From: a virus
Taxonomy: Duplodnaviria > Heunggongvirae > Uroviricota > Caudoviricetes
DNA length: 43,386 bases
Reading direction: 5' to 3' (one strand)
IMG/VR virus record: IMGVR_UViG_2563366976_000013
The position numbers were made by a program, and so were the translations under genes. Numbering within the stretch: the stretch's first letter is position 1; each line of letters starts with the position of its first letter. Under the pieces are notes generated by a model that was given only the letters and a program-made list of their open reading frames with translations, was not told the DNA's origin and made no database searches. Shown here piece after piece: positions 12,066-31,928 of the stretch.

Positions 12066-15000
12066 TTACTTCATCACCGGATCCACCTGGTTTATTAGTG
12101 GCGCAATCCAGAACAGGTTATTGCCGGGTATCAGGGTTCGGACATTATGCACAATACGATCACCGGCATCACCATTCAACACTCCTGAGGTCACATCAAT
12201 GATGCTATCCGCAAGACCAAATGACGGTCCGAATAGAGATCCTACGAATCCACGACTGGCATACCTGGACTGTGTGCCAGTGCCAAATAAAGCCCCCAGC
12301 CCAACAGCACCACCAGTCGCCTTTTCAGCCATGTTGTTATATTCCATCAATGGCCCAAGAATACCGGATCTATCTATACCCTCAAGCACCAGCTTCTCTG
12401 GTGACCAGTCAACATTTTTCCCTTTCGATGCTTCTTTAAGCGCATAGACCAGTGAGCCAAGAGCAATCTGAAATGCAGTGCCATAATAAAATTGCGCAGT
12501 TCCTTCCTGTAACCCACCAAGTAGCGCACGGTTGTATGAAGCCGTTGTGAATGATTTAAACTGAAATATCGTTCGCCCCATTGGAGTACTCGCCCATAAA
12601 GGTGTGTCACCAATACCGGGGGTGATGATAGTGTTATTAACGTCTTTCAGAACCGCTGACTGGAATACTCCGGCAACGTACTGATCGTCCCATTTATCAA
12701 AGTTACCAATGTGCCATCCATCAATTACCTCACCATGTTTCTCGAACTCACTGCGAATACGCGCAGCCATATTGTCGTTGATACCGAGTTTTGCCAGGCG
12801 GCGTGCAGGAAATGCACCGGACAAAATACCGTCTGAAATAACCATTCCGTTCATGGATTTGTTTATGTCATTAAAGCGATCCATGAGTGTCAGCTTGCCG
12901 AAGGCATCAGTAATTCGCTCCATTCCGGCTTCGACTGCTGTTGTCCTGGAAGAGCTGTCAACAAGATCACCAATTGCACGAGAGCGTGAATGCAGTACAG
13001 TTTCCAGTCCGATACCCATCTTCAACATCTCTTCTTTGCTGGCCTTAAATGCCGGTGATTGGGATATCTGAGAAGCATAGCCTTTCATGGTGTTACGGAA
13101 ACCATTAACCATAACCCCTCTGGCCAGATCTGGAATAGCTGATACTGTCATTCCACCGAGTTTGGTCGTGAAGTTCACATCCCGCAGAAAAGCGCCAGCA
13201 CGAACAAAAAACGAAGACGGATCATCAGGCATCCCATATGTACCAACAAGACGATCGCGTAATGCTGTTATGTCTCTGAGATCATTTGCTCTTGATTTTG
13301 AAAGTCTGGACTGTTCTTTCCGTAATTCCTTTTCGTACTTTCGCATTAATGAATCGAGTTTACCCTGAGGAACAACTTCACCATTGCTCTCATAACGTGC
13401 TTTCAGATTTGCCACACTTTCGTCATATTTCGCCTTTATTTTTTCAGGCACTTCCCGTAACAGACTGTCATATTCGTCCTCAATTAATTGCAGACGCTCA
13501 GTCATAGTTCGTTTGCCAAATGTTCTCGTCAACTCAATTTCTGCTGCCGCTTCACGGATATGACGTTGCAGCACGTAATTCACATCACTTTCAAGATAAT
13601 CCCTGATAAGACTATCAGGAACATTTAATGTTCTTTCTTTCGTACTACCTGCGGCTTTTACAGAAAATACGCTGACAAAATCCTGTGGAACCTTAGCACC
13701 AGTAATTTTATTAATTACGATATCTGCTGCAATTTCAGCATCCTCAGGAACCAGTGTTTTATTTCCTCTCGACCACCAGTCAACCAAAATACGTCGAAAT
13801 TTATCGCGTTCACTGATTATTTTTCCAACTTTATATATGCGTGGGAAATAGCTTGCCTGGCCTAATGCTTTCAGTTCTTCATCTGGCGGCAATAAACCAA
13901 GCTTTTGCATTTCAACTTTCACCCGATTTAATACAGTTCGCATCGCCTGCGCCGTTTCCTGAACAACAGGATTAGCATGCACATCACCGCTTCGCATAGC
14001 ATTCCCAACCTGCTGACGAAATGAATCAAAACTCATGTCACCACCATCAGCTTTATACTTTGCGTATGCCTGTTTATTTCCGACAACAACAGCAGCTTCT
14101 TCACGCTGCCATCCACGTGTACGGGTTTCTACAGCTACCGGTGTTTCAATCCCCCTTTCATTTCCTTTAAGGGTGAAATTATTTTCGGCTAACTCCAGCG
14201 TTGTTTTTCGCACTGTCCTGGACGGAGACTCCATTAACCTTGTCAAAGGAGTAAGATAGCTCCCTGCTTTCCATGCAGCCTTTCCAACCACCCCACCAGA
14301 AACAGGGGTTAAATCATCCAGAGTCGCTGTATCAATTTTCATAGCACCAACACTACCACCATCGGAAAGCGAAGCGGCAGCCCTGTCAGTCACTGATGTA
14401 ATGCTCATATTATCAAGAGCATCAGCAACCTCACGTGTGGCTGCAGCCCGGACGGATGGCGAAAGCGCAACACCAGCACTGGCAAACACGCCGCTCATTA
14501 TCGCACCCGCTGCAACGTGAGCGGCACTTTCACCCCATGAGCGTGTTATTTGCTGATTATTCAGTACAACCTCGCTTAATGCAGTACCGGCAGCACCAAT
14601 CGCAATCTGTGAGCCAATACGCGCCAGTGCCCCTCCTTGAGCACCTGGGATAAACATTGACGCAACAGTAACCGGGTCAAAAAGCATCGCTGTTGCACTG
14701 GCAATTCCACCAGCTAAGCCTGCTTCAGAGATAAAACGCCGATCTTCATTTTCATCATCTATCTGCTGCTTAATCCACGCTGTTTCTTCTGGCGAGCGGG
14801 AACCTGCAAATTTCGCACCCCAGTATTCATAGCCGTGCAACTCATTTTTATCAGCATATGGGTTATAACCCTCGACCGGTTCAAACTGTCTGGCAGGACG
14901 GAAAAAACCAGCCAGAATATTGTTCTGTCGTATTGCTGCGGCAAGCAATGAAGGCTCTTTTTGGCGAGGCTCAGGGTTCTTACCTTCTGGCGGATGCACA

Positions 15001-15089
15001 TCAAAACTCTGTTCATCAGGTTCAGGAATGGCGCGACCAGCAGAAATAAATCCGTTATTGTTTGATTCAGATACAGGATAGAACGGCAT
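12066..15089 (-). CDS. Large internal virion/DNA-ejection protein (T7 gp15/gp16-class)
   Basis: 1007 aa, position after other internal virion proteins and before tail fibre region; Gly/Ala-rich segments. Confidence 0.55.
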   Translation of the reverse strand: MPFYPVSESNNNGFISAGRAIPEPDEQSFDVHPPEGKNPEPRQKEPSLLAAAIRQNNILAGFFRPARQFEPVEGYNPYADKNELHGYEYWGAKFAGSRSPEETAWIKQQIDDENEDRRFISEAGLAGGIASATAMLFDPVTVASMFIPGAQGGALARIGSQIAIGAAGTALSEVVLNNQQITRSWGESAAHVAAGAIMSGVFASAGVALSPSVRAAATREVADALDNMSITSVTDRAAASLSDGGSVGAMKIDTATLDDLTPVSGGVVGKAAWKAGSYLTPLTRLMESPSRTVRKTTLELAENNFTLKGNERGIETPVAVETRTRGWQREEAAVVVGNKQAYAKYKADGGDMSFDSFRQQVGNAMRSGDVHANPVVQETAQAMRTVLNRVKVEMQKLGLLPPDEELKALGQASYFPRIYKVGKIISERDKFRRILVDWWSRGNKTLVPEDAEIAADIVINKITGAKVPQDFVSVFSVKAAGSTKERTLNVPDSLIRDYLESDVNYVLQRHIREAAAEIELTRTFGKRTMTERLQLIEDEYDSLLREVPEKIKAKYDESVANLKARYESNGEVVPQGKLDSLMRKYEKELRKEQSRLSKSRANDLRDITALRDRLVGTYGMPDDPSSFFVRAGAFLRDVNFTTKLGGMTVSAIPDLARGVMVNGFRNTMKGYASQISQSPAFKASKEEMLKMGIGLETVLHSRSRAIGDLVDSSSRTTAVEAGMERITDAFGKLTLMDRFNDINKSMNGMVISDGILSGAFPARRLAKLGINDNMAARIRSEFEKHGEVIDGWHIGNFDKWDDQYVAGVFQSAVLKDVNNTIITPGIGDTPLWASTPMGRTIFQFKSFTTASYNRALLGGLQEGTAQFYYGTAFQIALGSLVYALKEASKGKNVDWSPEKLVLEGIDRSGILGPLMEYNNMAEKATGGAVGLGALFGTGTQSRYASRGFVGSLFGPSFGLADSIIDVTSGVLNGDAGDRIVHNVRTLIPGNNLFWIAPLINQVDPVMK

Positions 15090-17797
15090 TATTTAGATCC
15101 CCACGAAAAGTAATCTTTAAATTTGTCCATACGTTCGTTATGCAGGCGCTGATACTGCTCATCCAGAGCACGATGCTTGTCTTTGAAGTTTTGTATAGCC
15201 TGTCCACGCATAATTTCTTCCTGCTCGTGCTGCTCCCGTTCCTGCTGCATTTTCTTATAAGGTTCCCAATCTTCTAGTGATGGCCCCCAGCGCATCAGTC
15301 TTCCATGCTTGTCATAAAATAAATCATCCCTCGTAATACCATCTTTATCTTTTGTTCTGATCACAACTGAATAAAGCTTATCTCTCGGAGTTGATAAATC
15401 AGGAACAAGAATCAACTCACCTCCAACCAGTGAGCGTGGTGTATTCAGTCCCAATGCACCAGCCTCAGTTGAAGGTCGGTTAAATGAAGGAGCTGGTTTA
15501 TGCAAGTCATCGCCATACATGATTTTTTCTTTTTCAGCTTTCCATTGCGCTGCAATCCAGCCTGACGGCCCATATTGATAAAGCGCCTCCGGTGCATATT
15601 TCATAAACTGTGCTTCCCCGTTGACCTCGCTGATACTCCAGGTGCGGGCTATCTGCTGGTTGGTCATTTGCTTCGCTACGTCAGCGTTACCACCAGCAAG
15701 GCGATAGTTAACGTCATACAGCATCTGATAGTCATTGCGAAAGAGCGCTGCTTCCGGCGTCTGGTCATCCGCAGACGGATCCCAGCGAAGCCAATGAGCC
15801 ATATTGCTGACAGCAGAATTGGCTGCGCTGTCACGCTCTTTTTTGTATTCTCTTGTACTCTGAACAGATGAGAGCTGCGCCCTTAGTGCATCTGTCTGGT
15901 TGTATGTCTTACTCTGCGCTTCCACAATAGCAGCATCAGAAGACATCCCTGCATCAGTTAGTTGCTTAACAGTCAGATAAAAACCCTGCATATCCTTCGG
16001 CATATTTCCAATAGATGCATTGTCTGTTTCATATAACCGACTAAACAGTTCCGCCGCATTTTTAACCACTTCCTGATTGCTGGATCGGGATACTGCTGAA
16101 AGCTGCGTGATGACCTGCGAAGGCATTATGCCAGTCTGAGCCACAAGCCGAACAACCCCATCATGAGTGGAGGCATCATTAATACGAAAGTTCTGCGCCA
16201 TTTCTGTGTAATCAGCAGCTTTCTGCATTGACTTGTTGCTTGGGTCTAATTTTTCACCTATTGTCAGCGCCTCATTGAATCTGCGTGAATCCCGTTGCGC
16301 CTGAATTGCTTCATTTGATCTCTGAAGCAATGCAGACAATTTTCCGTAAGCATCGAGTTTTAACGCATAGTGAGGATCGTTAACCTCAGGCTTCACTTTC
16401 TGCATTTCTTCTTGCTGCTGAGAAGGAGGCAAATACTGAATTGCCTGGAATATTCTCGCGTTATCAATCGCTATATCCAGTTGATTGATTATTTTATCTG
16501 CGTTTTTTCCATACCCCCTGATGATGGTCTCCTGAGCCGGTATATAATCTGGAACCTCACCGTTATATAGCTGGGCCATGGTGTTATTAATAGCTGGCTC
16601 AAGCTGTTCTAATATTAACTTCCTTTGCTTTTCTATCTGACTATTAGCAAGGTTATCTATTTGATAAATAGTCAGCGGATCCATTCCAGTTTTATTTTTT
16701 CTATATCGGGAAAGCCACCCTTGTGTTTCTGATGGAAGATTTCGGATAAATTCTTCTTCTGATATTTCACCTTTACGCGGATCACCGACTTTGGCGATCA
16801 GTTTATCCACGTTACCCATCCCCCAGTTATATGCTGCTCCGGTCAATATTTCTGAGCCGTACTTACCATACAGTTGATTTACATAGTCACTGGCAAGCAT
16901 TTCATGCTGTTGTTCGTCCGTAGGGTTGTATTCAACGCCACGTTTGGCCGCCAGTTCTTTCCCTGTGCCCGGCATTAACTGGTATTTCCCCTGGGCCCTC
17001 TCTCCAGAAGATGTTTTCGGTCCTTCAAGAATACTACCATCAGGATTAAAGTGACGATCACCTGATTCAACAAGGCGTATGGCACGCATGTCCATGCCTC
17101 CAGAATCATTTTTCTGAAACTGACCATTTAACCATCCTTCCGGGTTAGCAGCGGCATAATTCTTCGCCCGCATTTCTGTGGCACTGCGATCATCACTTTC
17201 TATTTCTTCCAGAATGCGTTCTTGTGACCATCCCCTGGCTGCTCCATATCTGGCAATGGCTACCATTCTGGAATTTCTGGCTAAAGTGGCAGTTTGCGGG
17301 TCATTCCAGGCATCCGCTTCATTTTGTATCCATAATTTTCTCGTTGCCTGATATTGCTCATCTTCATAGGCATTTGTCTGCCCTATCTCATGTCTGAGAA
17401 CTCCAGTACTGAACTGAATTTTCTGTGTTCTGGCTTGTTGCAAAAACATATTTCTTGCTGCTTCATCAGTCAATGAAGCAGCTATTTCTTCCACATCCTG
17501 ATCAAATCCAGATATGTACTCTTGCCCCTTACCAATCGCATTTTTGCCTTGTTGTGCATAAAAACCGGTTTGAGGGTTATAAAGACGTTCATTGCTGCGC
17601 TGATTAAGCTGAAGTATGGCATCCTGAGACAATGCAACATTCGCTTTCTGCCTGGCTTCACCATATGCCACCGCATACTGATCTGCGACATTCGCCAGCA
17701 CCTGACCTGCTTGAGGAACATCGAAGATCTGAAAACCACCGGTTTGCACACCACGACTTTGCACCTGGCGTCCGGATGTAGTAGGAACAACAGGCAT
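15089..17797 (-). CDS. Internal virion protein with soluble lytic transglycosylase (SLT) domain
   Basis: 902 aa; SLT-like motif GERAQGKYQLMPGTGKEL...AAYNWGMGNV; position in ejection-protein block. Confidence 0.65.
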   Translation of the reverse strand: MPVVPTTSGRQVQSRGVQTGGFQIFDVPQAGQVLANVADQYAVAYGEARQKANVALSQDAILQLNQRSNERLYNPQTGFYAQQGKNAIGKGQEYISGFDQDVEEIAASLTDEAARNMFLQQARTQKIQFSTGVLRHEIGQTNAYEDEQYQATRKLWIQNEADAWNDPQTATLARNSRMVAIARYGAARGWSQERILEEIESDDRSATEMRAKNYAAANPEGWLNGQFQKNDSGGMDMRAIRLVESGDRHFNPDGSILEGPKTSSGERAQGKYQLMPGTGKELAAKRGVEYNPTDEQQHEMLASDYVNQLYGKYGSEILTGAAYNWGMGNVDKLIAKVGDPRKGEISEEEFIRNLPSETQGWLSRYRKNKTGMDPLTIYQIDNLANSQIEKQRKLILEQLEPAINNTMAQLYNGEVPDYIPAQETIIRGYGKNADKIINQLDIAIDNARIFQAIQYLPPSQQQEEMQKVKPEVNDPHYALKLDAYGKLSALLQRSNEAIQAQRDSRRFNEALTIGEKLDPSNKSMQKAADYTEMAQNFRINDASTHDGVVRLVAQTGIMPSQVITQLSAVSRSSNQEVVKNAAELFSRLYETDNASIGNMPKDMQGFYLTVKQLTDAGMSSDAAIVEAQSKTYNQTDALRAQLSSVQSTREYKKERDSAANSAVSNMAHWLRWDPSADDQTPEAALFRNDYQMLYDVNYRLAGGNADVAKQMTNQQIARTWSISEVNGEAQFMKYAPEALYQYGPSGWIAAQWKAEKEKIMYGDDLHKPAPSFNRPSTEAGALGLNTPRSLVGGELILVPDLSTPRDKLYSVVIRTKDKDGITRDDLFYDKHGRLMRWGPSLEDWEPYKKMQQEREQHEQEEIMRGQAIQNFKDKHRALDEQYQRLHNERMDKFKDYFSWGSK

Positions 17798-18363
17798 CAG
17801 TAACCTCCTATTTTGAATCGGGAGTCAGAATTCATAAAACCTGAGTTAGATAACATTGGCGTGTTTCCTTGCTTACTAATCGGATTGATACTTCCGCTAC
17901 CCAACTTATATGCACCGTATGCTTTTAGTGGTGCCGTTAACAAAGTGCTGGTCATCGATGATTTAGCAGCCGACTGAGCAGCAGCCCCCTGTGCCTGAGC
18001 ATTCATTCCCTGAACCTGATACCCATATGCCTCACGCTGAGCATTATTCACTGTCGTTAACGCATCAAGAGTGCCGAACTGAGCATTATCCGCAAAAACG
18101 TCAAGAGCTGTTCCGCTACTTAATTCCGCACCGGTAGCCCCCATAGTGGCCGCCGCAGTGCCTGAGCGTTGACGCATTTCACGACGACGCTGATCCGCTT
18201 CAATATTCCCACGATTGATTGAATCCTGTGCCTGAGCTTCAGCAATTTCAGCATTCCGATCAGCTATGGCTGACTGGTATTTTGCCTGCTTGCTCTGGCT
18301 GTACATTGACGCGGCTGTGGATGCCACTGTGACGGCAACCAAAGCGATGGCTGGGTTACACAT
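17797..18363 (-). CDS. Internal virion protein (T7 gp14-class by size/position)
   Basis: 188 aa, Ala/Gln-rich, adjacent to tail-tube genes. Confidence 0.4.
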   Translation of the reverse strand: MCNPAIALVAVTVASTAASMYSQSKQAKYQSAIADRNAEIAEAQAQDSINRGNIEADQRRREMRQRSGTAAATMGATGAELSSGTALDVFADNAQFGTLDALTTVNNAQREAYGYQVQGMNAQAQGAAAQSAAKSSMTSTLLTAPLKAYGAYKLGSGSINPISKQGNTPMLSNSGFMNSDSRFKIGGY

Positions 18364-18827
18364 TATTTTCTCTCCATGTGAAATCTGTGGAAATTAAGAC
18401 CAAGAGCACCATAAGGCGCGGCTTCTTCAAGCCTGAATCCAAGCCAGTGCAGCCATGCTTTGGCAACATGGTTTCGCTCGTCGACATAGTTTTCCAGGCG
18501 CGGATAAACTGCCAGCATCTGCTGCAATACAGGGCGGCAGTGGCGAAGAAATGTCTTCTGATATTTTTCGATACGGCTGGTTCCGACCAGCCAGGGCGTA
18601 CCATTGCCACCGATCATTGACGCCGGAGATACGCCAAACATGGTTACCAGTTCTCCGTTCGCGAACCCTGACCAGGCCATAGTCGCAGTGCGCAGACCAA
18701 CACGCAGCGCATCTTTGGTAGTCATCAGCGATACCGCATACAGTTCGTCAATATCAGCCTGACGAACATCCGGCAAAATCATCTGAAGATGCTCTTCGGT
18801 TGCGGGAATAATTTGAACATCGATCAT
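18363..18827 (-). CDS. Virion protein (T7 gp13-class by size/position)
   Basis: 154 aa between tail-tube B-like and gp14-like genes. Confidence 0.35.
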   Translation of the reverse strand: MIDVQIIPATEEHLQMILPDVRQADIDELYAVSLMTTKDALRVGLRTATMAWSGFANGELVTMFGVSPASMIGGNGTPWLVGTSRIEKYQKTFLRHCRPVLQQMLAVYPRLENYVDERNHVAKAWLHWLGFRLEEAAPYGALGLNFHRFHMERK

Positions 18828-21903: not shown

Positions 21904-21959
21904 AAGTTTCTATACTCCTGCAATAAAGGGGCCGAAGCCCCTTGTCTGATTCGCGAGGC

Positions 21960-22295
21960 TTACACGCCCAGTTCTTTACGCTTATCTGCGATCTTCTCGC
22001 GTAGCGTTTCGGCTTTGGCGTTATGGTGTGGCTTCTCGTTAAAGAGCAATTCGTACTCTTCACGGAGCTTATCCAGTTCACCATCATCTGACACATCGTT
22101 GATGATTTTGGTGCTGGTTGCTGCCATTGACACCTTTCCTGCAACTTTTGCTTTTGCCTGTCTGGCTGCATCGTTAACAGGTTCCAGTGCGCTACCAGGC
22201 TCACCTTCGTATTCGATTTCTGCCCCCTCCGGCCACAGAGTGTTATGGATATGAGAGAGGCGCAGAACGCGGTATCTTGGTTTCTCACCTGACAT
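21960..22295 (-). CDS. Hypothetical virion-module protein
   Basis: About 111 aa from ATG 22295 with RBS AAGGTGA; charged, Lys/Glu-rich. Confidence 0.4.
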   Translation of the reverse strand: MSGEKPRYRVLRLSHIHNTLWPEGAEIEYEGEPGSALEPVNDAARQAKAKVAGKVSMAATSTKIINDVSDDGELDKLREEYELLFNEKPHHNAKAETLREKIADKRKELGV

Positions 22296-22305
22296 CGATA
22301 TCACC

Positions 22306-22743
22306 TTAACCAGTTACTTTTGAGCGGATCGGGTACGGCGTATTGGCATCAACATCCAGACTGATACCCGCAGTGAATTTGCCAGCCGTTAGTGGGCCAG
22401 TTGCGACGGAGTAGTTAACACGCAGATATCGCTGAACACCGGCAGGCACCTTTGCAGAAACAACTCGTTTACCTGCTGTCAGGGCGGTCTTTGCCAGTGC
22501 GCCACTATCATAAATAGTGGTCCATGAGCTGTTATTCTCACTCGTCTGCAACTGGATGTTTACAGTTGCATCACCGCTTGCCGCGGCGGCTGCGTTAACC
22601 AGCGCCCAAAACTCAAGCGGGTAACCCACGCCGATATCACGACGTTTTCCGTCAATTGGACCGAGATCGATTACGTCAGTAGAAGCCGCGGTATTCGTAA
22701 CCGCCTGAGCTTCGGAGAACATCAACAGTTTGTCGGTGATCAT
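22306..22743 (-). CDS. Capsid decoration/accessory protein (putative)
   Basis: 145 aa immediately downstream of major capsid gene; beta-rich composition. Confidence 0.45.
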   Translation of the reverse strand: MITDKLLMFSEAQAVTNTAASTDVIDLGPIDGKRRDIGVGYPLEFWALVNAAAAASGDATVNIQLQTSENNSSWTTIYDSGALAKTALTAGKRVVSAKVPAGVQRYLRVNYSVATGPLTAGKFTAGISLDVDANTPYPIRSKVTG

Positions 22744-22794
22744 CTTCTTTCTCCATTAGTGGGTCTGTTACGACCCACAGGTTAATAACAGGCG

Positions 22795-23781
22795 TTACAC
22801 CACGCGGGCTTCTGTTTCCAGAAGCGCATCAGTTTCACGGATTGGTACACCACGGAATGAAGTCCACCACTCGCCTTCAGTCTCTTTTACGCTGATAGCC
22901 AGAGATGTTTTCTCCAGAGATTGCAGATCAAGAGCCTGGCCTACAGTGCGGTTCATGTAGAACACCGGGCGGCCCATGCCACGGTTTGGAATGCGATGCA
23001 GTGCCTTAACCATCAACTTGGCAATATTTGCGGCAGAGGATGGTTCTGAAAGATTGCTGACATCGATGTTTGCAATGCGAACAACATAGCGCCAGTCACG
23101 CAATGTCAGCCCGTTGTCCCACTTATAATGGGTACGATAACCTTCGTACTTGCCGCCATTAGCATCTTCCAGTGTCACCTGGCCTTTATCTTCCATCTGG
23201 ATGCCAGCCTTCTGCCCTTTCGGGAAGATGCCATGCACGGTGTTTTCGCCCCACACCACTAACCAGATTGAAGTGTTATCTGTACCCGTGCCACCAGCAT
23301 CAATGATGTTCTGAGCATTACCCGCAGACAGGCTGGAATAGCGGGAGGACAGTCCCATAAACTGCTGAGGGTTAACGCTGGAATCACCGTAAAACAGCGT
23401 CTGCGCCATCGCCTGATTCATCGCTTCAATAAATGCTCGGTCTTCAGACAGGCGGAATTCGGCAGTATTACCGTTCAGATCAGCCAGAGACTTATCGACT
23501 TCAGCATAGGTTTCCAGCATGCCAATGGAATCAGTGACCTGCACCGTTGTTGATTTGCTCGGTTGTACGCCATAGTTCAGCAAACGCCAGGTAGCGGAAG
23601 GCAAACCAGAACGAATGGTGGTTCGGTGTCCGGTAGGAAGGTTTCCTTCAACAAAAGGCATATCCTGAAGGATTGGGTTGGTTTGACTGAGAAGCTCGAT
23701 AATCTTATCGACTTTCCCGTTTGGATCGACGCGCTTACCCCAGTCAGCCAGCGTTAGCGCAGTTAAGCCTTTAACAGCCAT
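22795..23781 (-). CDS. Major capsid protein (HK97-fold class by context)
   Basis: About 328 aa after scaffold gene; RBS AGAGGAA; start at second ATG (23781) for spacing, 23787 possible. Confidence 0.75.
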   Translation of the reverse strand: MAVKGLTALTLADWGKRVDPNGKVDKIIELLSQTNPILQDMPFVEGNLPTGHRTTIRSGLPSATWRLLNYGVQPSKSTTVQVTDSIGMLETYAEVDKSLADLNGNTAEFRLSEDRAFIEAMNQAMAQTLFYGDSSVNPQQFMGLSSRYSSLSAGNAQNIIDAGGTGTDNTSIWLVVWGENTVHGIFPKGQKAGIQMEDKGQVTLEDANGGKYEGYRTHYKWDNGLTLRDWRYVVRIANIDVSNLSEPSSAANIAKLMVKALHRIPNRGMGRPVFYMNRTVGQALDLQSLEKTSLAISVKETEGEWWTSFRGVPIRETDALLETEARVV

Positions 23782-23795
23782 TGTCATTTCCTCTC

Positions 23796-24491
23796 TTATT
23801 TTCCATAGAGCACTTCGGCCGCACTACGCTGGCCTTCATTACCACCGGTGACCATGCCATCTTCAGACATCGCCTTTCCGATTTTCACGAACGTTTTGAC
23901 CAGATCAGGGTGATTACCCAGCCCGGTGGTGTTCAGATATTCTTTGAGTTCAGGTGTCCCGAACTGGTCAAGCGCACGCTGTGCGGCGCTAAGGTTAGAA
24001 ATCAACTTGTCGCCACCGATTTCTTTGTCAGCTTTTACATCCGCAGCCCACTGCTCGGTTGTTTTCTGCCAGGCTTCTGCCTGGCGCTGCTGAACACCTG
24101 CCAGAATCTTCGGATAAGCATCAACCAGCTTTTGCGCTTGCTCGTTGGTCAGGTTTAGTTCTCGCGCCACCGGCTCGAATTCCTTCAACGCTTCTGTATC
24201 CAGCTCTACGCCTTCGGCAGCCTGAAACTCGTACTTTTCAGGCGCACCCTCTGGTTTATCGCCGTCCTTTTTTTCATCCTGCTTATCGTTTTCAGGCTTT
24301 TTGTCATCAGCAGGTTTATCGCCATCAGCAACAGGTTGTGGCTTATCACCTTCCTGTTGTGATGGATCACCAACTGGAGCAGGGTTATCACCTGCAGGCG
24401 CTGACGGTTCTGACGCAGCCGGAGCTGCTCCACCATCGACTGGTTGCTCATTGCAAAGACGGCGATACAGCAAACGCTCAAATAAATTCAT
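23796..24491 (-). CDS. Scaffolding protein
   Basis: Acidic, Pro/Ala/Asp/Lys-rich low-complexity N-terminus then helical region; between portal and capsid; RBS AGGAG. Confidence 0.6.
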   Translation of the reverse strand: MNLFERLLYRRLCNEQPVDGGAAPAASEPSAPAGDNPAPVGDPSQQEGDKPQPVADGDKPADDKKPENDKQDEKKDGDKPEGAPEKYEFQAAEGVELDTEALKEFEPVARELNLTNEQAQKLVDAYPKILAGVQQRQAEAWQKTTEQWAADVKADKEIGGDKLISNLSAAQRALDQFGTPELKEYLNTTGLGNHPDLVKTFVKIGKAMSEDGMVTGGNEGQRSAAEVLYGK

Positions 24492-24493
24492 GA

Positions 24494-24790
24494 TCACTCC
24501 TGTTCACTGGCCTCTTTGGCCATCTTCAAATACTGTTCAGGGCAATGCGCCATAACGCGCTGAAACAGTTCCAGCGCCAGATTGCGTTGCCCCTCATTAA
24601 ATGCCATTGCCATAGCGTCCATCGGTGAGATAGCGGAAAACACACGGCCTTTCTCCAGCACCGACCAGACAACGCGACGCCCCTGTTCACTGCTCATGAC
24701 AAAGCGAATGTCATCAATTTCACGCTGTGCCATGTCACGTTGCTTACGGGCGTTTTCTTCTTTCAGTTGATCGTCTTCGTAATCTGTCAT
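24494..24790 (-). CDS. Small head-assembly-region protein (hypothetical)
   Basis: 98 aa, ATGA overlap with portal stop. Confidence 0.4.
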   Translation of the reverse strand: MTDYEDDQLKEENARKQRDMAQREIDDIRFVMSSEQGRRVVWSVLEKGRVFSAISPMDAMAMAFNEGQRNLALELFQRVMAHCPEQYLKMAKEASEQE

Positions 24791-26466
24791 TGTGATTGCC
24801 CACCCTGACCACTAACTGCATTCGCCATAGCTGACAAAACACTCGGATCCGAAGTTTTAGCTTCGCTTAGCGTCTTGGCACCCTGTGCCGCCGCCATCCC
24901 CATCGCCATCATTTGTTGCTGCTGTTGTTGCTGTGCCCGTTGCTGGCGAACCTGCTCAACCTGTTCCTGCGGAACAATGACGGTTGGAGACACTCCGGAC
25001 ATATCAGCGAATGCATCGATCGCCTGATCAACGTTGAGTTTGTCGAGAGCTTCTGGTTTCGCTTGCGCAAGTTGACCAATGAAGTTAACCGTGGACGCCA
25101 GACTGGACAGGCCGATAGACTTCTGCGCCTGAGCCATGACGGAAATGTATTCGACCTTCAGGGGCATGCCTTCCATCGCGTCAGGCGGTGGCGGCAGCAT
25201 GTTTTTACGCACCATCATCGAGAAAGCGCGGTCAATGAGAGGATTAAGACATTCGTCGTTCAGACGCTCCAGAACCGGCCCCAACATCAGAAGTTTTTCT
25301 TCTTTCATTTCGATCACCGCTTCAACAGGCATCGAGCGGGTATTGATGTTCTGCAACATCATGAACAGATCGACAAAGTAGGCGCTGTTAATGATTTGAC
25401 GAGTGTCCTGAATGTCTGCCACCAAATCTGCTGTACTGGGGTTAACCAGATAAGCAGGCCTGAAGCCATCCTGACCAGTAATCTGATCGATATACGTGAT
25501 GTCGCCAGGAAGAAGGGAGGCGCGCTGATTCTTGAGGGAAGTCGGAGCAACCATCGGCGGATTGGTGGCTTTATCAATCAACTGCGACTTGCGCTTCTGA
25601 AGAAGCTGCAATGCCTTAACAGATCCAAGCGCCAGCATACCCGGGCATGATGATCCATAAACATCTTCGCCGTTAACTTCCCAGCGCGGAGCCATAATTG
25701 GAAACTCATCGAATCCGGACTCACGCAACAACTTGTCGTTATCGCCACCAACCTCGTAATAAACCGATTTGAATGGCTTGTTCTTGCTATCCAGCTTCGA
25801 TGTATCGCGGTCAATGTTCGGGTAAACCGAATGCATCACTTCAATCCACTTCTCGTAGGTGCCGCTTTCCCACATGCTTTTTACGGATTCGCTGACGTTA
25901 TTTAGCCCGAACTCCTGAACAAGCTGACGAACAGTCATAGAGAACTTGCGGAAACAGGTGTCCACACTGCCACGAGGTGAGTTAGCCAGGTAGTAACTGC
26001 CTATCGGGAATGGCATTGTGCGAATGATGTCCTCGTCATCCTCCAGCACCGCCATTGCACCAGTGCTGTATGTGCCGAGGCTTCCGTATAACTGCGGAAG
26101 GGACTGGTAGAGATTCGACTTATTGAACATATCGTTCATGCGGTTCTGAACTGCCTCAAGCCACAACTTAACAGGGCCATAGTCCATCATTTCAGGATCT
26201 GGCGTAGCCAGGCGAAACCACGGACGGGCGGGGCTTGTTATGCCTGACATCATGCCGCTGGCAAGAGTGCGCGCCGCCATAGTCCCGGTCGAATCAATAA
26301 TGCGTGTATTGCGTCGATCGTTACGGTTAACCTCAGAAGTCAGAAAGCGGGAACCACGCGGGTTGATGTAATCACTCAACTCGCGCCAGTGCGACTCGAA
26401 CGACTGACGCTCGCTTTCAAGTTGTGCGAACTGTTTGTTCAATCGCTCTTTAGTTGTTTCCGCCAT
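24787..26466 (-). CDS. Portal protein
   Basis: 559 aa, first large gene of head module, Gln-rich C-terminus; RBS GGAG. Confidence 0.75.
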   Translation of the reverse strand: MAETTKERLNKQFAQLESERQSFESHWRELSDYINPRGSRFLTSEVNRNDRRNTRIIDSTGTMAARTLASGMMSGITSPARPWFRLATPDPEMMDYGPVKLWLEAVQNRMNDMFNKSNLYQSLPQLYGSLGTYSTGAMAVLEDDEDIIRTMPFPIGSYYLANSPRGSVDTCFRKFSMTVRQLVQEFGLNNVSESVKSMWESGTYEKWIEVMHSVYPNIDRDTSKLDSKNKPFKSVYYEVGGDNDKLLRESGFDEFPIMAPRWEVNGEDVYGSSCPGMLALGSVKALQLLQKRKSQLIDKATNPPMVAPTSLKNQRASLLPGDITYIDQITGQDGFRPAYLVNPSTADLVADIQDTRQIINSAYFVDLFMMLQNINTRSMPVEAVIEMKEEKLLMLGPVLERLNDECLNPLIDRAFSMMVRKNMLPPPPDAMEGMPLKVEYISVMAQAQKSIGLSSLASTVNFIGQLAQAKPEALDKLNVDQAIDAFADMSGVSPTVIVPQEQVEQVRQQRAQQQQQQQMMAMGMAAAQGAKTLSEAKTSDPSVLSAMANAVSGQGGQSQ

Positions 26467-26480
26467 TTCAATGACTCCGG

Positions 26481-26687: not shown

Positions 26688-26755
26688 ATCAATGACTCCG
26701 TACGCAATTAAATTATTACCAATTTAACCACATATGATTTATTTATCGTAGATAG

Positions 26756-26792
26756 TTGACATTTAACGCACAAATTATTACCTTTTAGGTAA
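26756..26792. promoter_or_regulatory. -35-like TTGACA and operator palindrome TTACCttttaGGTAA at terminase-portal moron
   Basis: Palindrome 26778-26792; TTGACA at 26756-26761 on plus strand. Confidence 0.4.
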
Positions 26793-27114
26793 CCAAAGAG
26801 TTCATTCCGGTTACTAACCTGACTGGCTTGTCGTTAAATTGAACAGGTGGAGTGAGCTTTTATTTTGAGCAGTACGGCGTATGGCACATGCGCCGATAGC
26901 GGTCTGGATACGTTTAAGGGGCACCCTCCCTTGCTCGGGCAAACGAACCAGGTAGCCGGAATGTGCAAGTCGAGCGGTTTTATTCCGCGCACGGGGATTC
27001 ACCATCCCGGCGATTCGGTGTGACGCCTCGGAAGAGACGAGGGTACAACGATGAGAGCATTTATGGAGCCGCGACAAAGTGTGGCGCCTTAACAGGCTAA
27101 GTGCTCTCAGCGTT

Positions 27115-27191
27115 GTGGCATTAGCTCAGTTGGACAGAGCAACCGCCTTCTAAGCGGTTGGTCGCAGGTTCGAATCCTGCATGCCACGCCA
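27115..27191 (+). tRNA. tRNA-Arg (anticodon UCU, reads AGA)
   Basis: Manual cloverleaf: acceptor GTGGCAT/ATGCCAC, D-arm GCTC/GAGC, anticodon stem ACCGC/GCGGT with loop CTTCTAA, T-arm GCAGG-TTCGAAT-CCTGC, discriminator G, CCA encoded. Confidence 0.85.
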
Positions 27192-27234
27192 GAATCACGC
27201 CTGAGGACCGTGATGCCAGAAGTTCCAGGGGCTT

Positions 27235-27277
27235 GGCGGTGATGGTTTCCCTTGAAGGCCTATCACCGCCCTTTTTA
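27235..27277 (+). terminator. Rho-independent terminator downstream of tRNA
   Basis: GGCGGTGAT...ATCACCGCC stem then CTTTTT. Confidence 0.55.
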
Positions 27278-27353
27278 CAGCAGGACGCCATTGCGATGAC
27301 TTCATGCTGTAAACCCGTACAGCCACGGAAGGCATAACTCATTGCTTCCAGTT

Positions 27354-27379
27354 CGCCCGGTTCGCCGGGCATTTTTTTG
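27354..27379 (+). terminator. Second rho-independent terminator
   Basis: GCCCGG-ttcg-CCGGGC stem then T7. Confidence 0.6.
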
Positions 27380-27394
27380 CCTGATGACCACAAA

Positions 27395-27409
27395 TTACCT
27401 TAAAGGTAT
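27395..27409 (+). promoter_or_regulatory. Operator-like site TTACCttaaaGGTAT overlapping RBS of moron ORF
   Basis: 14/15 match to palindrome family, 5 nt before ATG 27414. Confidence 0.35.
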
Positions 27410-27413
27410 AATC

Positions 27414-28262
27414 ATGAAAAACTTTAAGGTAATTAGTATGTTCGAATCGTTCAAAGAGCTGTTTTTATCTACTGCCAATACTGCCGTGCATCGAGCTAAA
27501 AACCCTGTGCTTGGTGCTTTTGTTATGTCCTGGTGCGCCTTCAACTGGAAATCACTTCTTTATCTGTTTTTTAGCAAATCAAATATAATAGATAAAATTT
27601 CATACATCTCAGATAACAGCACATGGAAAACTGTTATGTTTTATCCATGCTTATCTGTAATTACTATCTGCTGCCTATTACCATGGGTAAACAATATCAT
27701 TAACGTATGGCAAGCAAAACCTCTTGATAATAATGACTCAATCGAAAACCACCGGAAGGCAAGAAAAATACAACGTGAAACACGGCTACAGAGATTGCTG
27801 GCTAAAAAAGACATTACTTACGAAAAAGTAAAAACAGGCGCTGAAAAAAACATTCAAGACATGAAAGAGGAAATAATTCTTTCAAAAGACAGAATGGGAC
27901 AACTCACATCTGAATTGAAAGAGAGGGAGACAGAACTGCGCGCAGCACAAGCTCGTATTTTAGAATTATCTAAGGTTATTGATGAAACAACATCTAAACT
28001 AGAAAATCTAGAAAAAACTCACAAAAATTTAAAAAACGAATATGAGTCCTATAAGAAAAACATTCCTTTGGCAACAAATAATACAATTGCTAATGGGCTT
28101 GTAGGTCTAAAATCATTACAAGACTTTAATGAGTCCGTAAAGAAACTTGGCGTTACTGGAATTAACAATCCAGAAATCAGTACATTATTGAATAATCCTC
28201 TAGTAAATATAAATGGTGATTTAAATTCCACCTATCAAAGAAAATCAAAAACACAAAAGTAA
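27414..28262 (+). CDS. AT-rich moron: membrane-anchored coiled-coil protein (candidate abortive-infection/exclusion factor)
   Basis: 283 aa from ATG 27414; two hydrophobic helices then long Lys/Glu-rich coiled coil; low GC vs flanks; opposite strand to late operon, inserted between terL and portal. Confidence 0.55.
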   Translation: MKNFKVISMFESFKELFLSTANTAVHRAKNPVLGAFVMSWCAFNWKSLLYLFFSKSNIIDKISYISDNSTWKTVMFYPCLSVITICCLLPWVNNIINVWQAKPLDNNDSIENHRKARKIQRETRLQRLLAKKDITYEKVKTGAEKNIQDMKEEIILSKDRMGQLTSELKERETELRAAQARILELSKVIDETTSKLENLEKTHKNLKNEYESYKKNIPLATNNTIANGLVGLKSLQDFNESVKKLGVTGINNPEISTLLNNPLVNINGDLNSTYQRKSKTQK

Positions 28263-28265
28263 AAA

Positions 28266-29735
28266 TCATTCAAATGGGTCATAGTCTGTTATAGCCCTGC
28301 CCTGCTGCTGCCGTGGGTCATTAGTTTTCTTGGCTACCGGGAACGCAAACGTCAGCAGTAGCGCATCGCCTTTACCAGGAGAACGCCCAAGCCGCTCCTT
28401 GATATCTTCCTTCGGTTCGATAACGATTTTACCGTCCACTCGAACTTTGTACTCTGCCGCCGACAGGTCGTCCGCTGTTTCCTGGTCATCAAGCATGCCG
28501 CCCAGCCTCAGCCATGTCTTGCATGAGTTGAACATCTCCCCACGCTTGTTGAGCATCTGCGGGTCAGTAGACGCGCCACCAAACGGAACAAGTTGCCATG
28601 TACGACCCCAGCCGTCACCGATTGACTTCAGACCAGTTCCGTAACCGAAGTCGATGAACACTGCGTCAGCCTGGTACTGGTCTTCAAAGTCAGCGATACG
28701 CTTCGCCATTATCAGATCGTCAGTGGTCTTGTTGCCAGTCCACAGCACCTTACTGTGTAGCCCCTGCCGCAGGTATATCACAGCGTCATCAACGCCGGAG
28801 TATGCCGGGTCAACGCCGATTATCACCGGAGCATGTGCAACCTGCGCAGCGGTTACCACCCGTTTCATTGCCTCGTCAGTAAGACCGGTAGGGATAAACT
28901 GCAATTCAGATGCATCAGGGAATATGCCACGCACACGGATTTTAACGAAGTCGCTGTCTTCCCCGTAGTCATCAACCCATTTCTGCAACTGCTGTTTGTT
29001 GGTACCTTCCACCGTCCGACTGTCAATCTGCGCAGTTTTCCAGCGGTGTTTATACTTGCGGAAACATTCACGGAAACGTCCGGTATTACGCGTCGGGTTT
29101 CCGAACGCCACCCAGATAATCTCAGTGTCTTCGTCCGTAAGCGCACCCTCAGCAACTTCCCACACCAGATCCGCAATGTTCGACGCTTCATCGAATACCA
29201 CGATGATGCGTTTGCGCTCGTTGTGTAGTCCGGCGAATGCCTCAGTGTTGTGCTCAGACCAGGGGATTGCGTCAGCTCGCCACCGCTTGTCGTGCCCAGG
29301 ATCATTGCTGTACATCGCAGTAGCGGTACAGGTAAACCAGTCTTTCGTGATAGCAAGGTTCGACCACTTGATAATTTCCGGCCAGGTCTTCGTTCGTAGC
29401 TGGTTGTCGGTGTTGGCGGTCACCACGACCTTACAATCCTCGCAAGTGGACATGCCCCAGTTGATCAGCATTGAGATGAATGCGGATTTACCAATACCGT
29501 GACCAGAAGCGCGTGCCAGCATAAGCGGCTGATAGCGCGTCTCTGGATTCTGCAGGTGATCACGTATCTCTCGGAACGCATCGGCCTGCCACTGACGTGG
29601 ACCGGTGGCATGTGCCAGTTCAGTACCCTCTTCCCCCCACGGGAACGCATAGAGGGCATAGCCAAGCGGATCGTGAGTGAACCCTGCAATATCCTCGATC
29701 AACTGCTCTTCAGGAGATAACGCTGTATCTGTCAC
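28266..29735 (-). CDS. terL: Terminase large subunit
   Basis: Walker A-like GHGIGKS, nuclease-type acidic motifs in C-half; GTG start overlapping terS stop. Confidence 0.85.
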   Translation of the reverse strand: MTDTALSPEEQLIEDIAGFTHDPLGYALYAFPWGEEGTELAHATGPRQWQADAFREIRDHLQNPETRYQPLMLARASGHGIGKSAFISMLINWGMSTCEDCKVVVTANTDNQLRTKTWPEIIKWSNLAITKDWFTCTATAMYSNDPGHDKRWRADAIPWSEHNTEAFAGLHNERKRIIVVFDEASNIADLVWEVAEGALTDEDTEIIWVAFGNPTRNTGRFRECFRKYKHRWKTAQIDSRTVEGTNKQQLQKWVDDYGEDSDFVKIRVRGIFPDASELQFIPTGLTDEAMKRVVTAAQVAHAPVIIGVDPAYSGVDDAVIYLRQGLHSKVLWTGNKTTDDLIMAKRIADFEDQYQADAVFIDFGYGTGLKSIGDGWGRTWQLVPFGGASTDPQMLNKRGEMFNSCKTWLRLGGMLDDQETADDLSAAEYKVRVDGKIVIEPKEDIKERLGRSPGKGDALLLTFAFPVAKKTNDPRQQQGRAITDYDPFE

Positions 29736-30328
29736 TGATTACCATCCTGACGTTCTTTGAGTCGCTTCCTGGCTGCTGCTATGCGATCAGCAATTGTCAC
29801 ATTCACATTAACATCCAGACGTTCTTTGAACGCGTTGACATCAACATGCTTACCAATCAGCTCAAGGTTCTTCACCTTGTCAGGCCATTTAATTTTTTTG
29901 AGGATTGTCTCTATCGAATCCTCGTTCATGTTCATGATGGTCGATGACAGATCAAAGCCACTAAGCGTAGTGCGCCAGATTTTCGGCCACTCACGGATTG
30001 GTTTAAGGCTCCCATCGTCGTTGAGGATGTCGATCACGTCCATCTGGTCGATCTCCACCAGGCGCATGAGAACGTAATCAGCACTGACACGCATTCGTTT
30101 GTTGCGCTCCTCCATCAACTCGGCAATCCGTTTTTGAATGCGTTCATCGCGCATCATGACACTGGCTTTAACTGCCGCTGTATTTGGGGAGAATCCTGCG
30201 TTAATCGCTGCCTGAGTCTGGTTTTCAGGCGTTTTGATGTATGACTGGCAATAAGCCTCCTGCATTGCTGTTAGTGGCTTAAATTGCGTTGATTTGCGTT
30301 TATAGGTTTTAGGTTCAGCAGGCATCAT
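29732..30328 (-). CDS. terS: Terminase small subunit
   Basis: Position immediately upstream of terL with overlap; start placed at MMPAEPK with RBS GGTGG (ORF track extends to 30406). Confidence 0.6.
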   Translation of the reverse strand: MMPAEPKTYKRKSTQFKPLTAMQEAYCQSYIKTPENQTQAAINAGFSPNTAAVKASVMMRDERIQKRIAELMEERNKRMRVSADYVLMRLVEIDQMDVIDILNDDGSLKPIREWPKIWRTTLSGFDLSSTIMNMNEDSIETILKKIKWPDKVKNLELIGKHVDVNAFKERLDVNVNVTIADRIAAARKRLKERQDGNQ

Positions 30329-30446
30329 AACCACCGTGGTAATAGTTACCGTTTTGGTAATAGTACCATGCAAAATAAAGCCGCCATAGTTGGCGGCAGT
30401 ATTCAAAACCCGTCAAATTCATCATGCATAATCTACTCGTGACATG

Positions 30447-31927: not shown

Positions 31928-31928
31928 A

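Follow-up and report, generated by a model that had tools for sequence, protein, structure and literature searches.

The 43,386-nt stretch of viral DNA deposited as IMG/VR record IMGVR_UViG_2563366976_000013 was analysed as a whole (hereafter the window) and contains 117 open reading frames (ORFs) of at least 80 aa. From position 1162 to its right end at 43386, it very probably represents a prophage that belongs to the group of epsilon15, phiV10 and TL-2011b (genus Uetakevirus and its near relatives), adjoining guaA in an Escherichia coli-like chromosome. The genes for packaging, head, tail and DNA ejection are arranged as one minus-strand block between 12066 and 30406, in the following order:

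29732-30406, minus strand: small terminase subunit TerS (Pfam Terminase_2)
28266-29735, minus strand: large terminase subunit TerL (PHROG 2)
24787-26466, minus strand: portal protein, 559 aa, T7 gp8 superfamily (Pfam Head-tail_con, 1.4e-188; PDB 8ck0_A, 1.3e-178)
24494-24790, minus strand: Bbp19-like small protein, 98 aa (Pfam Phage_Bbp19, 2.8e-17)
23796-24497, minus strand: 233-aa protein in the scaffold position (PHROG 458, 'protease')
22795-23787, minus strand: major capsid protein, 330 aa, epsilon15 gp7 family (Pfam GP7, 1.3e-149)
22306-22743, minus strand: Bbp16-family capsid cement protein, 145 aa (Pfam Bbp16, 3.5e-47)
21960-22304, minus strand: epsilon15 gp9-like gene, 114 aa (BLASTP against epsilon15 gp9: 40% identity, 4e-19)
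21904-21959, no strand assigned: clean junction of a 319-bp deletion (three-way DNA alignment against phiV10 and TL-2011b)
21298-21903, minus strand: head-to-tail adaptor (tubular tail protein A), 201 aa (AlphaFold2 model, predicted local distance difference test score, pLDDT, 84.5)
18827-21298, minus strand: tail nozzle (tubular tail protein B), 823 aa (PDB 8ck1_A, Carin-1 'Tail Nozzle', 5.7e-217)
18363-18827, minus strand: internal virion protein A, 154 aa, gp13-like (PHROG 308, 1.3e-62; T7 gp13 in the same PHROG, 1.1e-42)
17797-18363, minus strand: internal virion protein B, 188 aa, T7 gp14 family (Pfam T7_gp14, 31.6 bits against a cut-off of 27)
15089-17797, minus strand: 902-aa internal virion protein at the gp15 position, with an SLT lytic transglycosylase domain (Pfam SLT, 1.3e-7, residues 260-342; PHROG 1044)
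12066-15089, minus strand: internal virion (ejection) protein D, 1007 aa, T7 gp16-type (PHROG 342, 7.1e-208)

Two plus-strand features lie in a variable insert (27115..28262) between TerL and the portal gene:

27115-27191, plus strand: tRNA-Arg(UCU) (ARAGORN and Rfam)
27342-28262, plus strand: 306-aa ORF (PHROG 4780, unknown function)

Based on the order of these genes, an earlier note on this DNA had proposed a T7-like virion plan (genes 8 to 17) under lambdoid temperate control. The order itself, from the portal to two large internal proteins of which one carries an SLT domain, was borne out on the minus strand, with the terminase genes preceding the portal. It is not the uninterrupted order of T7, as the Bbp19-like, Bbp16 and gp9-like genes, together with the tRNA-Arg and the 306-aa ORF, are interleaved. 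Nor does a tail fibre gene directly follow the ejection genes: a tailspike is encoded at 3393-6512, outside this range and ~5.5 kb away. The structural proteins group with epsilon15-type families (GP7, Bbp16, Bbp19), their nucleotide identity being 76% to epsilon15 over the stretch from portal to nozzle and 95-98% to TL-2011b and phiV10, which is the outcome that the note itself had named as contrary to its proposal.

The left border of the prophage is marked by the att core ATTGAGTGGGAATGATT (1162..1178, minus strand), identical to the attP core known from phiV10, epsilon15 and ZX5, and matches to phage DNA begin at position 1162. Positions 1-1161 belong to the host chromosome and carry yfgH (glycine-zipper lipoprotein) and yfgI (DUF5384), both annotated as host genes in E. 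coli 2/0, in which a related prophage is flanked by yfgI and guaA. The deposited TL-2011b record also carries yfgH and yfgI at its end. Members of the group insert at the 3' end of guaA via this att core by a P4-type integrase, with which the core found here agrees, and the same core and the same guaA site have been described for ZX5 (PMC9782041).

Megablast of the virion block (12066-30406) against a database of 50,697 phage records returned TL-2011b at 97% identity over 91% of the range. Identity was ~98% over 60% for phiV10, ZX5, HEMP4, phiv142-3 and the O157 typing phages, and 76% over 33% for Salmonella phage epsilon15; the flanks of the range match the same phages. When the whole prophage part was compared with public phage genomes, as the earlier note had suggested, it fell within the epsilon15 group with TL-2011b closest: the product of identity and coverage was 70.6 for TL-2011b, 57.9 for the E. 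coli 2/0 prophage, 56.1 for phiV10, 28.4 for epsilon15 and 0 for T7. The virion signature of epsilon15-like phages was found, with the GP7 capsid, the Bbp16 cement, the Head-tail_con portal, an adaptor and a nozzle of the epsilon15 gp11/gp12 type, a tailspike with the epsilon15-type anchor, and PHROGs 394, 376 and 1171. A 191-bp probe from the virion block matched 517 of 5426 complete E. coli genomes.

TL-2011b (NC_019445), a prophage of enterohaemorrhagic E. coli O103:H25, is the closest relative overall, with 74% of the prophage aligned at 95% identity. Its virion genes stand in the same order. It shares its integrase, RecE/RecT, repressor and P genes with the window and is the sole isolated phage with the same cassette of a 902-aa and a 1007-aa protein. 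It differs in retaining gp10, in carrying another tailspike followed by an O-acetyltransferase, and in the genes between TerL and the portal as well as several early genes; relative to TL-2011b, the gaps of the window are at 3087-6165, 8060-8928, 27379-28275, 31284-34003, 35253-36167 and 40886-41828. The Uetakevirus members phiV10 and vB_EcoP_ZX5 are 97-98% identical to the window over the stretch that starts with TerS and ends with the 154-aa gene, and in much of the early region, share its att core and guaA site and, in the case of ZX5, its endosialidase tailspike, while their ejection cassette is of the epsilon15 type with three large proteins. phiV10 differs further by its gp10, its fused RecE-RecT and its O-acetyltransferase.

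The more distant epsilon15 shows the same virion order from TerS to gp14, and its portal, capsid and nozzle genes are 76% identical to those of the window in nucleotide sequence. This phage also has in common with the window the GP7 capsid, a Bbp16-like gp8, gp9, the double helix-turn-helix (HTH) type of repressor, dispersed repressor sites, a DnaT-type initiator and RecE/RecT, and differs by its gp15/gp16/gp17 cassette, its gp10 staple gene, its O-antigen conversion genes and an annotation that includes no lambda P homologue.

In the head and packaging region, both terminase subunits stand apart from T7, as the T7 terminase families (Terminase-T7_RNaseH-like, PHROG 38) were not matched by them. 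The capsid protein matched PHROG 212 only, with no cross-match to the T7 capsid PHROG 267 or to Pfam Gp10A-like. The portal is the head component shared with T7: T7 gp8 belongs to the same Pfam Head-tail_con family (2.8e-113), and PHROGs 332 and 449 match reciprocally. The 233-aa protein, called a scaffold in the earlier note, occupies the scaffold position, but it gave no significant match to a scaffold, and databases name it a protease or peptidase. It had no match in Pfam, NCBIfam or PDB, and no protease domain was found. Its alignment with the gp9 scaffold of the T7 family by hhalign was weak and not significant (E 0.013), and its N-terminal half is acidic and proline-rich. An NCBIfam scan of nine other virion and terminase proteins gave nothing useful.

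The segment with the tRNA-Arg and the 306-aa ORF is not present in TL-2011b, phiV10 or E. coli 2/0, where this locus differs. Judged by its translation, the product of the 306-aa ORF looks membrane-anchored with a coiled coil, and it gave only weak matches with PADLOC; the locus may represent a moron or an exclusion gene.

Two changes distinguish the virion block from its relatives. First, the homologue of epsilon15 gp10 (the capsid 'staple'), kept in phiV10 and TL-2011b, has been lost through a clean deletion of 319 bp. The remaining 114-aa gene matches epsilon15 gp9 and not gp10; gp10, a component typical of the group, was not found. The deletion is in register, and the adaptor gene is now preceded by the Shine-Dalgarno sequence from upstream. 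In most of the E. coli genomes matched, a gene named 'gp10: capsid staple protein' by the Prokaryotic Genome Annotation Pipeline (PGAP) spans the same query, while a minority of the 517 share the deletion junction; the deletion therefore appears to be a lineage trait. The loss of gp10 is a lineage variant and no ground for excluding the element from the epsilon15 group.

Second, similarity to phiV10 ends at ~18009, inside the gp14-like gene, and the ejection cassette (the C-terminal part of the gp14-like protein, the 902-aa and the 1007-aa protein) is of the TL-2011b type within an otherwise phiV10-like virion block. The large ejection proteins number three in phiV10 and epsilon15, and two in the window and TL-2011b. 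Only the N-terminal 250 aa of the 902-aa protein resemble epsilon15 gp15 (42%), and no significant BLAST similarity was found between the 1007-aa protein and epsilon15 gp17 (best E 0.011), while the 1007-aa protein is 94.6% identical to gp38 of TL-2011b. The cassette of E. coli 2/0 is of yet another, third type, encoding a 915-aa hypothetical protein together with a 1129-aa DUF919 protein. Among the 5426 E. coli genomes, 45 contain the TL-2011b-type cassette in full.

The clean loss of the staple gene also bears on the question whether this copy is still functional. A defective or decaying prophage of the same type that no longer makes virions, a reading compatible with the assignment to the epsilon15 group, would further agree with the truncated P22_AR_N antirepressor fragment and with the duplication and inversion seen in the antirepressor and toxin region. 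Against decay, the ORFs for all other structural, lysis, replication and integration functions have kept their full length, with sizes as in phiV10 and TL-2011b, the deletion is in register with a Shine-Dalgarno sequence before the adaptor gene, and the recurrence of the junction in a minority of E. coli genomes suggests a transmitted lineage. In addition, capsids of the BPP-1 type use Bbp16 as cement, according to a note in the epsilon15 record, and the Bbp16 gene is intact here. On balance, decay is considered unlikely. Equally tentative is the view that the element belongs to a viable, transmitted sub-lineage which would build staple-less capsids on Bbp16-type cement alone and would have acquired, by recombination inside the gp14-like gene, a two-protein ejection cassette whose 1007-aa protein is closer to T7 gp16 than epsilon15 gp17 is.

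The relation of the epsilon15-type virion block to T7 was evaluated with T7, SP6, phiKMV and P-SSP7 as comparison loci. For the adaptor, a Foldseek search with the predicted model retrieved the connector of Cobetia marina phage Carin-1 (2.2e-16), a match from Legionella phage LME-1 (9.3e-9), T7 gp11 (7box_M, 1.1e-6) and many adaptors of Autographiviridae. By sequence, phmmer and the family profile against PDB sequences reached Carin-1 (2.9e-26) and LME-1 and did not reach T7 gp11. The nozzle, which matches the LME-1 structure (PDB 9EFK) at 2.3e-15 and 18,304 cluster representatives at E<=1e-3, was linked to T7 gp12 by an hhalign comparison of its 24-sequence family alignment with the four-phage Autographiviridae gp12 alignment (probability 96.7%, E 3.9e-10), in which residues 293-552 align with T7 gp12 residues 308-579, which make up the central domain that Hardies et al. 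described. This link is convincing only against the four-phage alignment, as the family gave a weak result against the single T7 gp12 sequence (E 8e-4, probability 24%).

The structures of Carin-1 (PDB 8CK0/8CK1) and LME-1 (PDB 9EFK) are the closest solved ones for the portal, nozzle and adaptor. These phages have other hosts and genomes and the comparison covers the portal-tail proteins only; through them, the tail type of the window is already structurally characterised.

For the internal virion proteins, the 154-aa protein shares its PHROG with T7 gp13, and T7 gp14 matches the same Pfam family as the 188-aa protein, homologues of which are named 'virion core protein, T7 gp14 family' by PGAP. 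The 1007-aa protein aligns with positions 199-1226 of PHROG 342, of which T7 gp16 covers positions 4-1227; it begins at profile position 199 and is therefore without the N-terminal transglycosylase domain. An hhalign comparison with the gp16 alignment gave a probability of 93.3% (E 2.7e-7), and tblastn matches of 22-24% identity were obtained with SP6 gp37 and with proteins of RSB1, RsoP1IDN, LIMEzero and pelagiphages, while no PDB sequence was matched. No similarity was detected between the 902-aa protein and the Autographiviridae gp15 alignment. A lytic domain in the protein at the gp15 position is also annotated for SP6 gp36 and phiKMV gp36.

Homology to T7 genes 8 and 11-16 is thus detectable at six of seven positions and in the same order, the gp15 position being the exception. 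The proposed T7 order of genes 8 to 17 therefore stands as distant homology at these positions and fails for the capsid, the terminase and the 902-aa protein, which are without a T7 signal. Of the profile searches suggested against T7 gp11 to gp16, those for gp12, gp13, gp14 and gp16 gave a positive result, gp11 was recognisable by its fold only with no significant profile match, and gp15 gave nothing.

These similarities could also be taken for a recent chimera, in which the virion module of a lytic T7-like (Autographiviridae) phage was combined with a lambdoid temperate backbone. The gene order collinear with T7 genes 8 and 11-16, the placement of the 1007-aa protein in the T7 gp16 PHROG with direct tblastn matches to gp16 proteins of SP6, RSB1 and LIMEzero, and the Pfam T7_gp14 and Head-tail_con matches in the virion block agree with such an origin. 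However, the window shows no DNA similarity to T7, and protein identity is 12-24% where it is detectable at all; pairwise BLASTP of the portal, nozzle and 1007-aa proteins against T7 gp8, gp12 and gp16 gave nothing convincing, the best result being a gp16 fragment of 27 residues (E 0.007). Only two of nine T7 virion Pfam families, Head-tail_con and T7_gp14, were matched in the window, while Tube, Phage_nozzle, Phage_T7_Gp13, Gp10A-like, Phage_T7_tail and Terminase-T7 were matched by T7 and not by the proteins of the window.

The capsid, cement and Bbp19 proteins are of epsilon15/BPP-1 types, and the capsid family differs from that of T7. Cement, Bbp19 and gp9-like genes are additional to the T7 set, and the tailspike gene is separated from the ejection genes. 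Although T7 and other Autographiviridae (SP6, phiKMV, P-SSP7) have the same order of portal, adaptor, nozzle, gp13-like, gp14-like, large and gp16-like proteins, the terminase of T7, SP6 and phiKMV is encoded at the right end, behind the tail fibre gene, whereas TerS and TerL precede the portal in the window. Unlike these phages, the window is temperate, with genes on both strands, an integrase, a repressor, a cro-like gene and antirepressors. No RNA polymerase family, such as the single-subunit enzyme that Autographiviridae encode, was found in Pfam and PHROG scans of the window, where the only ORFs of at least 800 aa encode the tailspike, the nozzle and the two ejection proteins. The same arrangement is, moreover, old and widespread in epsilon15-like phages, and a recent chimera is regarded as highly improbable.

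The T7 resemblance is confined to the portal, tail and ejection genes, whose common ancestry is ancient, and does not reflect a recent fusion; head and packaging genes come from other lineages. This is in agreement with Hardies et al. 2016 (PMC4819975), who united the tails of T7, phiRIO-1, epsilon15, P22, N4 and F116 in one homology group ('transient tail' podoviruses) and described epsilon15 gp11 to gp17 as syntenic homologues of the T7 tubular tail proteins A and B and of internal virion proteins (IVP) A to D. In that study, epsilon15 gp12 was a strong match to T7 gp12, gp17 was identified as the IVP-D homologue, the homology of IVP-C could not be confirmed, and the terminase and capsid of epsilon15 mapped with siphovirus lineages. 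The present results reproduce each of these epsilon15 findings and place the element in the transient-tail homology group. A review of 2022 (PMC8954989) likewise lists epsilon15 among phages with gp14/15/16 homologues, and the epsilon15 RefSeq record cites T7 gp11 for gp11 and a GNAT fold for gp13.

The claim that temperate podoviruses with this combination are comparatively poorly described does not hold, as epsilon15, phiV10, TL-2011b and ZX5 have been studied and the T7 synteny was analysed by Hardies et al. 2016. The genus Uetakevirus is established with epsilon15 as its type species, and the genomes of all four phages have been sequenced. The element is an ordinary mosaic member of the common and well-described epsilon15-type temperate podoviruses and not a poorly described hybrid.

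Downstream of the virion block, the tailspike and lysis genes are arranged as follows:

3393-6512, minus strand: tailspike, 1039 aa, endosialidase (K1 polysialic-acid depolymerase; Pfam End_beta_propel, 2.7e-232, and End_tail_spike, 1.4e-77)
1289-3086, minus strand: lysis cassette, with equivalents annotated in TL-2011b, phiV10 and E. coli 2/0
2682-3086 and 2387-2695, minus strand: two holin-like genes (Pfam Phage_holin_8 and Phage_holin_3_7)
1768-2562 as listed, minus strand: endolysin ORF of the lysis cassette
1289-1771, minus strand: spanin-like gene (Pfam DUF2514)

The tailspike further contains End_beta_barrel, End_N_terminal and the Peptidase_S74 intramolecular chaperone, falls into PHROG 1171 (tail spike) and has an epsilon15-type N-terminal anchor. 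Its DNA is 98.8% identical to that of ZX5, for which the same tailspike domains have been described (PMC9782041). The endosialidase tailspike implies a K1-encapsulated host. No match to Pfam Phage_T7_tail was found, and the N-terminus shares only a 22-residue motif with T7 gp17 (E 0.042). The ~5.5 kb between the ejection genes and the tailspike are occupied by antirepressor, toxin-like and small RNA (sRNA) genes on both strands.

This location of the antirepressor region recalls P22 (Lederbergvirus), where the ant immunity region also lies between gene 16 and the tailspike gene. P22 shares the overall map of TerS, TerL, portal, scaffold, coat, adaptor, hub, ejection genes, ant region and tailspike, and is also a temperate podovirus with an integrase, recombination genes, a divergent repressor/cro pair and an origin inside the initiator gene. 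Protein families set P22 apart in the portal (gp1), the coat (gp5), the adaptor (gp4), the hub (gp10) and the needle (gp26). Its C2 repressor is cleavable, its antiterminators are of the N/Q type (genes 24 and 23), gene 12 encodes a helicase of DnaB type, Erf is present, and its lysis genes precede the terminase, unlike those of the window.

A P22-like (Lederbergvirus) prophage, for which this global gene order, the P22_AR_N fragment at 11403-11750 and Ead/Ea22-like genes could be cited, is extremely unlikely: the adaptor model matches gp11-type adaptors, with P22 gp4 not among the Foldseek matches listed, a tail-needle gene (gp26) is missing, the families of portal, capsid and nozzle are Head-tail_con, GP7 and epsilon15/Carin-1, megablast returns epsilon15-group phages and not P22, and neither a c2-type cleavable repressor nor a gene 23 antiterminator was found in Pfam and PHROG scans. 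P22-like identity was accordingly rejected at the family level, the layout alone being common to both.

The control, replication and integration region of the epsilon15-type prophage comprises the following genes:

34304-35098, minus strand: lambda P homologue (Pfam Phage_lambda_P, 4.2e-53)
35061-35894, minus strand: initiator with HTH_36 and DnaT domains (Pfam; PHROG 1032)
36261-36491, minus strand: cro-like gene, in the immunity switch (36261..37230)
36646-37230, plus strand: repressor, 194 aa, with two HTH domains and no (S24) peptidase domain by Pfam
37835-38656, plus strand: RecE-like PDDEXK exonuclease (Pfam DUF3799, 6.5e-22)
38626-39534, plus strand: RecT (Pfam RecT, 9.2e-32)
42136-43386, minus strand: tyrosine integrase, 416 aa (Pfam Phage_integrase, Arm-DNA-bind_3 and Phage_int_M), its start codon forming the right end of the window

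About seven iterons (TCCCGTTTTyGGG; repeat families D1 and D2) are located inside the initiator gene at 35491-35639. The initiator does not belong to the lambda O family, and PHROG matches to 'O-like' families were only weaker. The integrase gene shows 98.8% DNA identity to that of TL-2011b, and the gene before TerS encodes a 113-aa regulator (PHROG 536).

Among lambda-type features, the divergent repressor and cro-like genes with their operators were found, as was an origin whose iterons lie within the initiator gene, with a P-type helicase loader after it, while the repressor has HTH domains only, the initiator is of a non-O type and no N or Q family was found in the Pfam and PHROG scans. 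The lambdoid control postulated earlier is therefore supported by the integrase, RecT, RecE-like nuclease, P homologue and iterons, but the supposed O protein is a DnaT-type initiator and the supposed cI a double-HTH protein without an S24 peptidase. The control region is only partly lambda-like.

Also present are Ead/Ea22-like genes and, in the early region, a 202-aa protein (33228-33836, minus strand) with an HNH-endonuclease-like C-terminus, a PADLOC match of ZorE type (3.5e-10) and weak matches to Pfam HNH_3 and zf-HIT. The PADLOC matches of the accessory ORFs were only weak or generic.

The palindrome TTACC-N5-GGTAA occurs at 16 sites in the window against 0.7 expected. Sites are present at the immunity switch (36528 and 36576, also 36191), 5' of TerS (30328 and 30346, spanning 30328-30360), 5' of the portal unit (26778), between the tailspike gene and the ant region (6617 and 6997) and at the other ant modules; the operator-like sites include 6617, 6997, 8043, 9211, 11241, 26778, 30346, 34190, 34252, 36576, 37288 and 37350. 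The notes to the epsilon15 RefSeq record describe dispersed repressor sites before the terminase, gp3/portal and tailspike genes, the same positions as those of sites in the window. The TTACC-N5-GGTAA sites are probably repressor operators. Several of them accompany the antirepressor genes and their regulatory elements:

6617-6631, plus-strand unit: operator-like site preceding the LexA box
6669-6688, plus-strand unit: near-consensus LexA box TACTGTATAAATATACAGTT, directly 5' of the 85-aa ORF
6708-6965, plus strand: 85-aa ORF resembling the C-terminal domain common to Ant proteins
7048-7124, plus strand: isrK-like sRNA of antirepressor module 1 (Rfam RF01394, 74.7 bits)
7143-7230, plus strand: C4 antisense RNA of module 1 (Rfam RF01695, 78.6 bits)
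7234-7971, plus strand: Bro-N/Ant gene of module 1 (Pfam Bro-N; PHROG 130, Ant)
10313-10969, minus strand: AntA-type Ant gene of module 2 (Pfam AntA, 4.2e-26)
11019-11103, minus strand: C4 RNA of module 2 (Rfam)
11128-11204, minus strand: isrK-like sRNA of module 2 (Rfam)
11403-11750, plus strand: 115-aa ORF with the P22_AR_N antirepressor N-terminal domain only (Pfam)
41323-41412, plus strand: Rfam sRNA-Xcc1 match (62.9 bits) 5' of the third ant gene
41424-42104, plus strand: third AntA-type antirepressor gene, adjoining the integrase gene, with the same C-terminal repeat

Modules 1 and 2 are mutually inverted (inverted repeats 7716-7972 and 10312-10568, 95% identical), and the antirepressor region is bordered by inverted repeats measuring 257, 106 and 59 nt. 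The N-terminal domains of their Ant proteins differ (Bro-N and AntA), while the C-terminal 80 aa are alike. By analogy with LexA-controlled antirepressors, the 85-aa ORF is a candidate SOS-controlled mini-antirepressor; in related Salmonella prophages, induction usually runs through such LexA-controlled proteins (review PMC7380047). The 115-aa ORF is probably a truncated remnant.

Between the two modules, a duplicated segment (8100-10239, plus strand) carries YafO-like toxin genes at 8413-8925 and 9413-9985, each followed by a near-identical small ORF with a signal-peptide-like sequence, and contains a direct repeat (8929-9155 and 10000-10226, 99%).

A double-HTH repressor without a peptidase, combined with a set of antirepressors (three Ant paralogues and a LexA box), is typical of the group and was recognised here by sequence. 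In ZX5, overexpression of the repressor blocked lytic growth and the antirepressor promoted it (PMC9782041). Direct control of the late units by the repressor, and induction via antirepressors, are inferred for the present prophage.

Several points weigh against the identification of the element as an epsilon15-group prophage with a T7-related tail and this mode of control. No isolated phage matches the whole element, the best value being 71% identity x coverage (TL-2011b), and the TL-2011b record is without a genus, so that the formal species and genus placement of the element is not settled; the ICTV guideline for genera is ~70% genome-wide nucleotide similarity. The link between the adaptor and gp11 depends on a predicted structure, with a template modelling (TM) score of ~0.57-0.59 and 12-14% identity, and an hhalign comparison of the adaptor family with the Autographiviridae gp11 alignment was not significant (E 0.014). 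The role suggested for the 902-aa protein is drawn from its position, size and SLT domain only, with homology to gp15 not detectable. The functions of the operators, LexA box and RNAs are read from sequence alone, and with the staple gene deleted, virion production by this copy is unproven.

Taking the functions that the protein families suggest, a pac-type terminase would fill a procapsid composed of a T7-gp8-type portal, the scaffold-position protein, an epsilon15-gp7-type capsid of HK97 fold and Bbp16-type cement. A gp11-type adaptor and a gp12-type nozzle would form the short tail, on which six endosialidase tailspikes could bind and degrade the K1 polysialic-acid capsule. The gp14-like protein, the SLT-bearing 902-aa protein and the gp16-like 1007-aa protein would be packed in the head and, upon infection, the ejected proteins would cut the peptidoglycan and form a trans-envelope DNA channel, as in T7 and epsilon15. 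In the lysogen, the non-cleavable double-HTH repressor would bind TTACC-N5-GGTAA at the early promoters and before the terminase, portal and tailspike/ant units. Induction would probably proceed via antirepressors, one behind the LexA box and others behind the C4/isrK RNAs, and not by self-cleavage of the repressor.

As a discovery, the finding carries little weight: the architecture is the textbook epsilon15-type layout and its kinship with T7 has already been published. Its value lies in the correct filing of a prophage type that is present in about one in ten complete E. coli genomes (517/5426), here carrying a K1-capsule endosialidase. The loss of gp10 and the swap of the ejection cassette are the only points that might repay follow-up. 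Such copies are natural experiments on the combinability of ejection cassettes and tails, on the need for a capsid staple and on antirepressor-based induction. If the staple-less sub-lineage tentatively considered above is indeed viable, the capsid could do without its staple, and phages that are otherwise 97-98% identical could exchange entire ejectosome cassettes.

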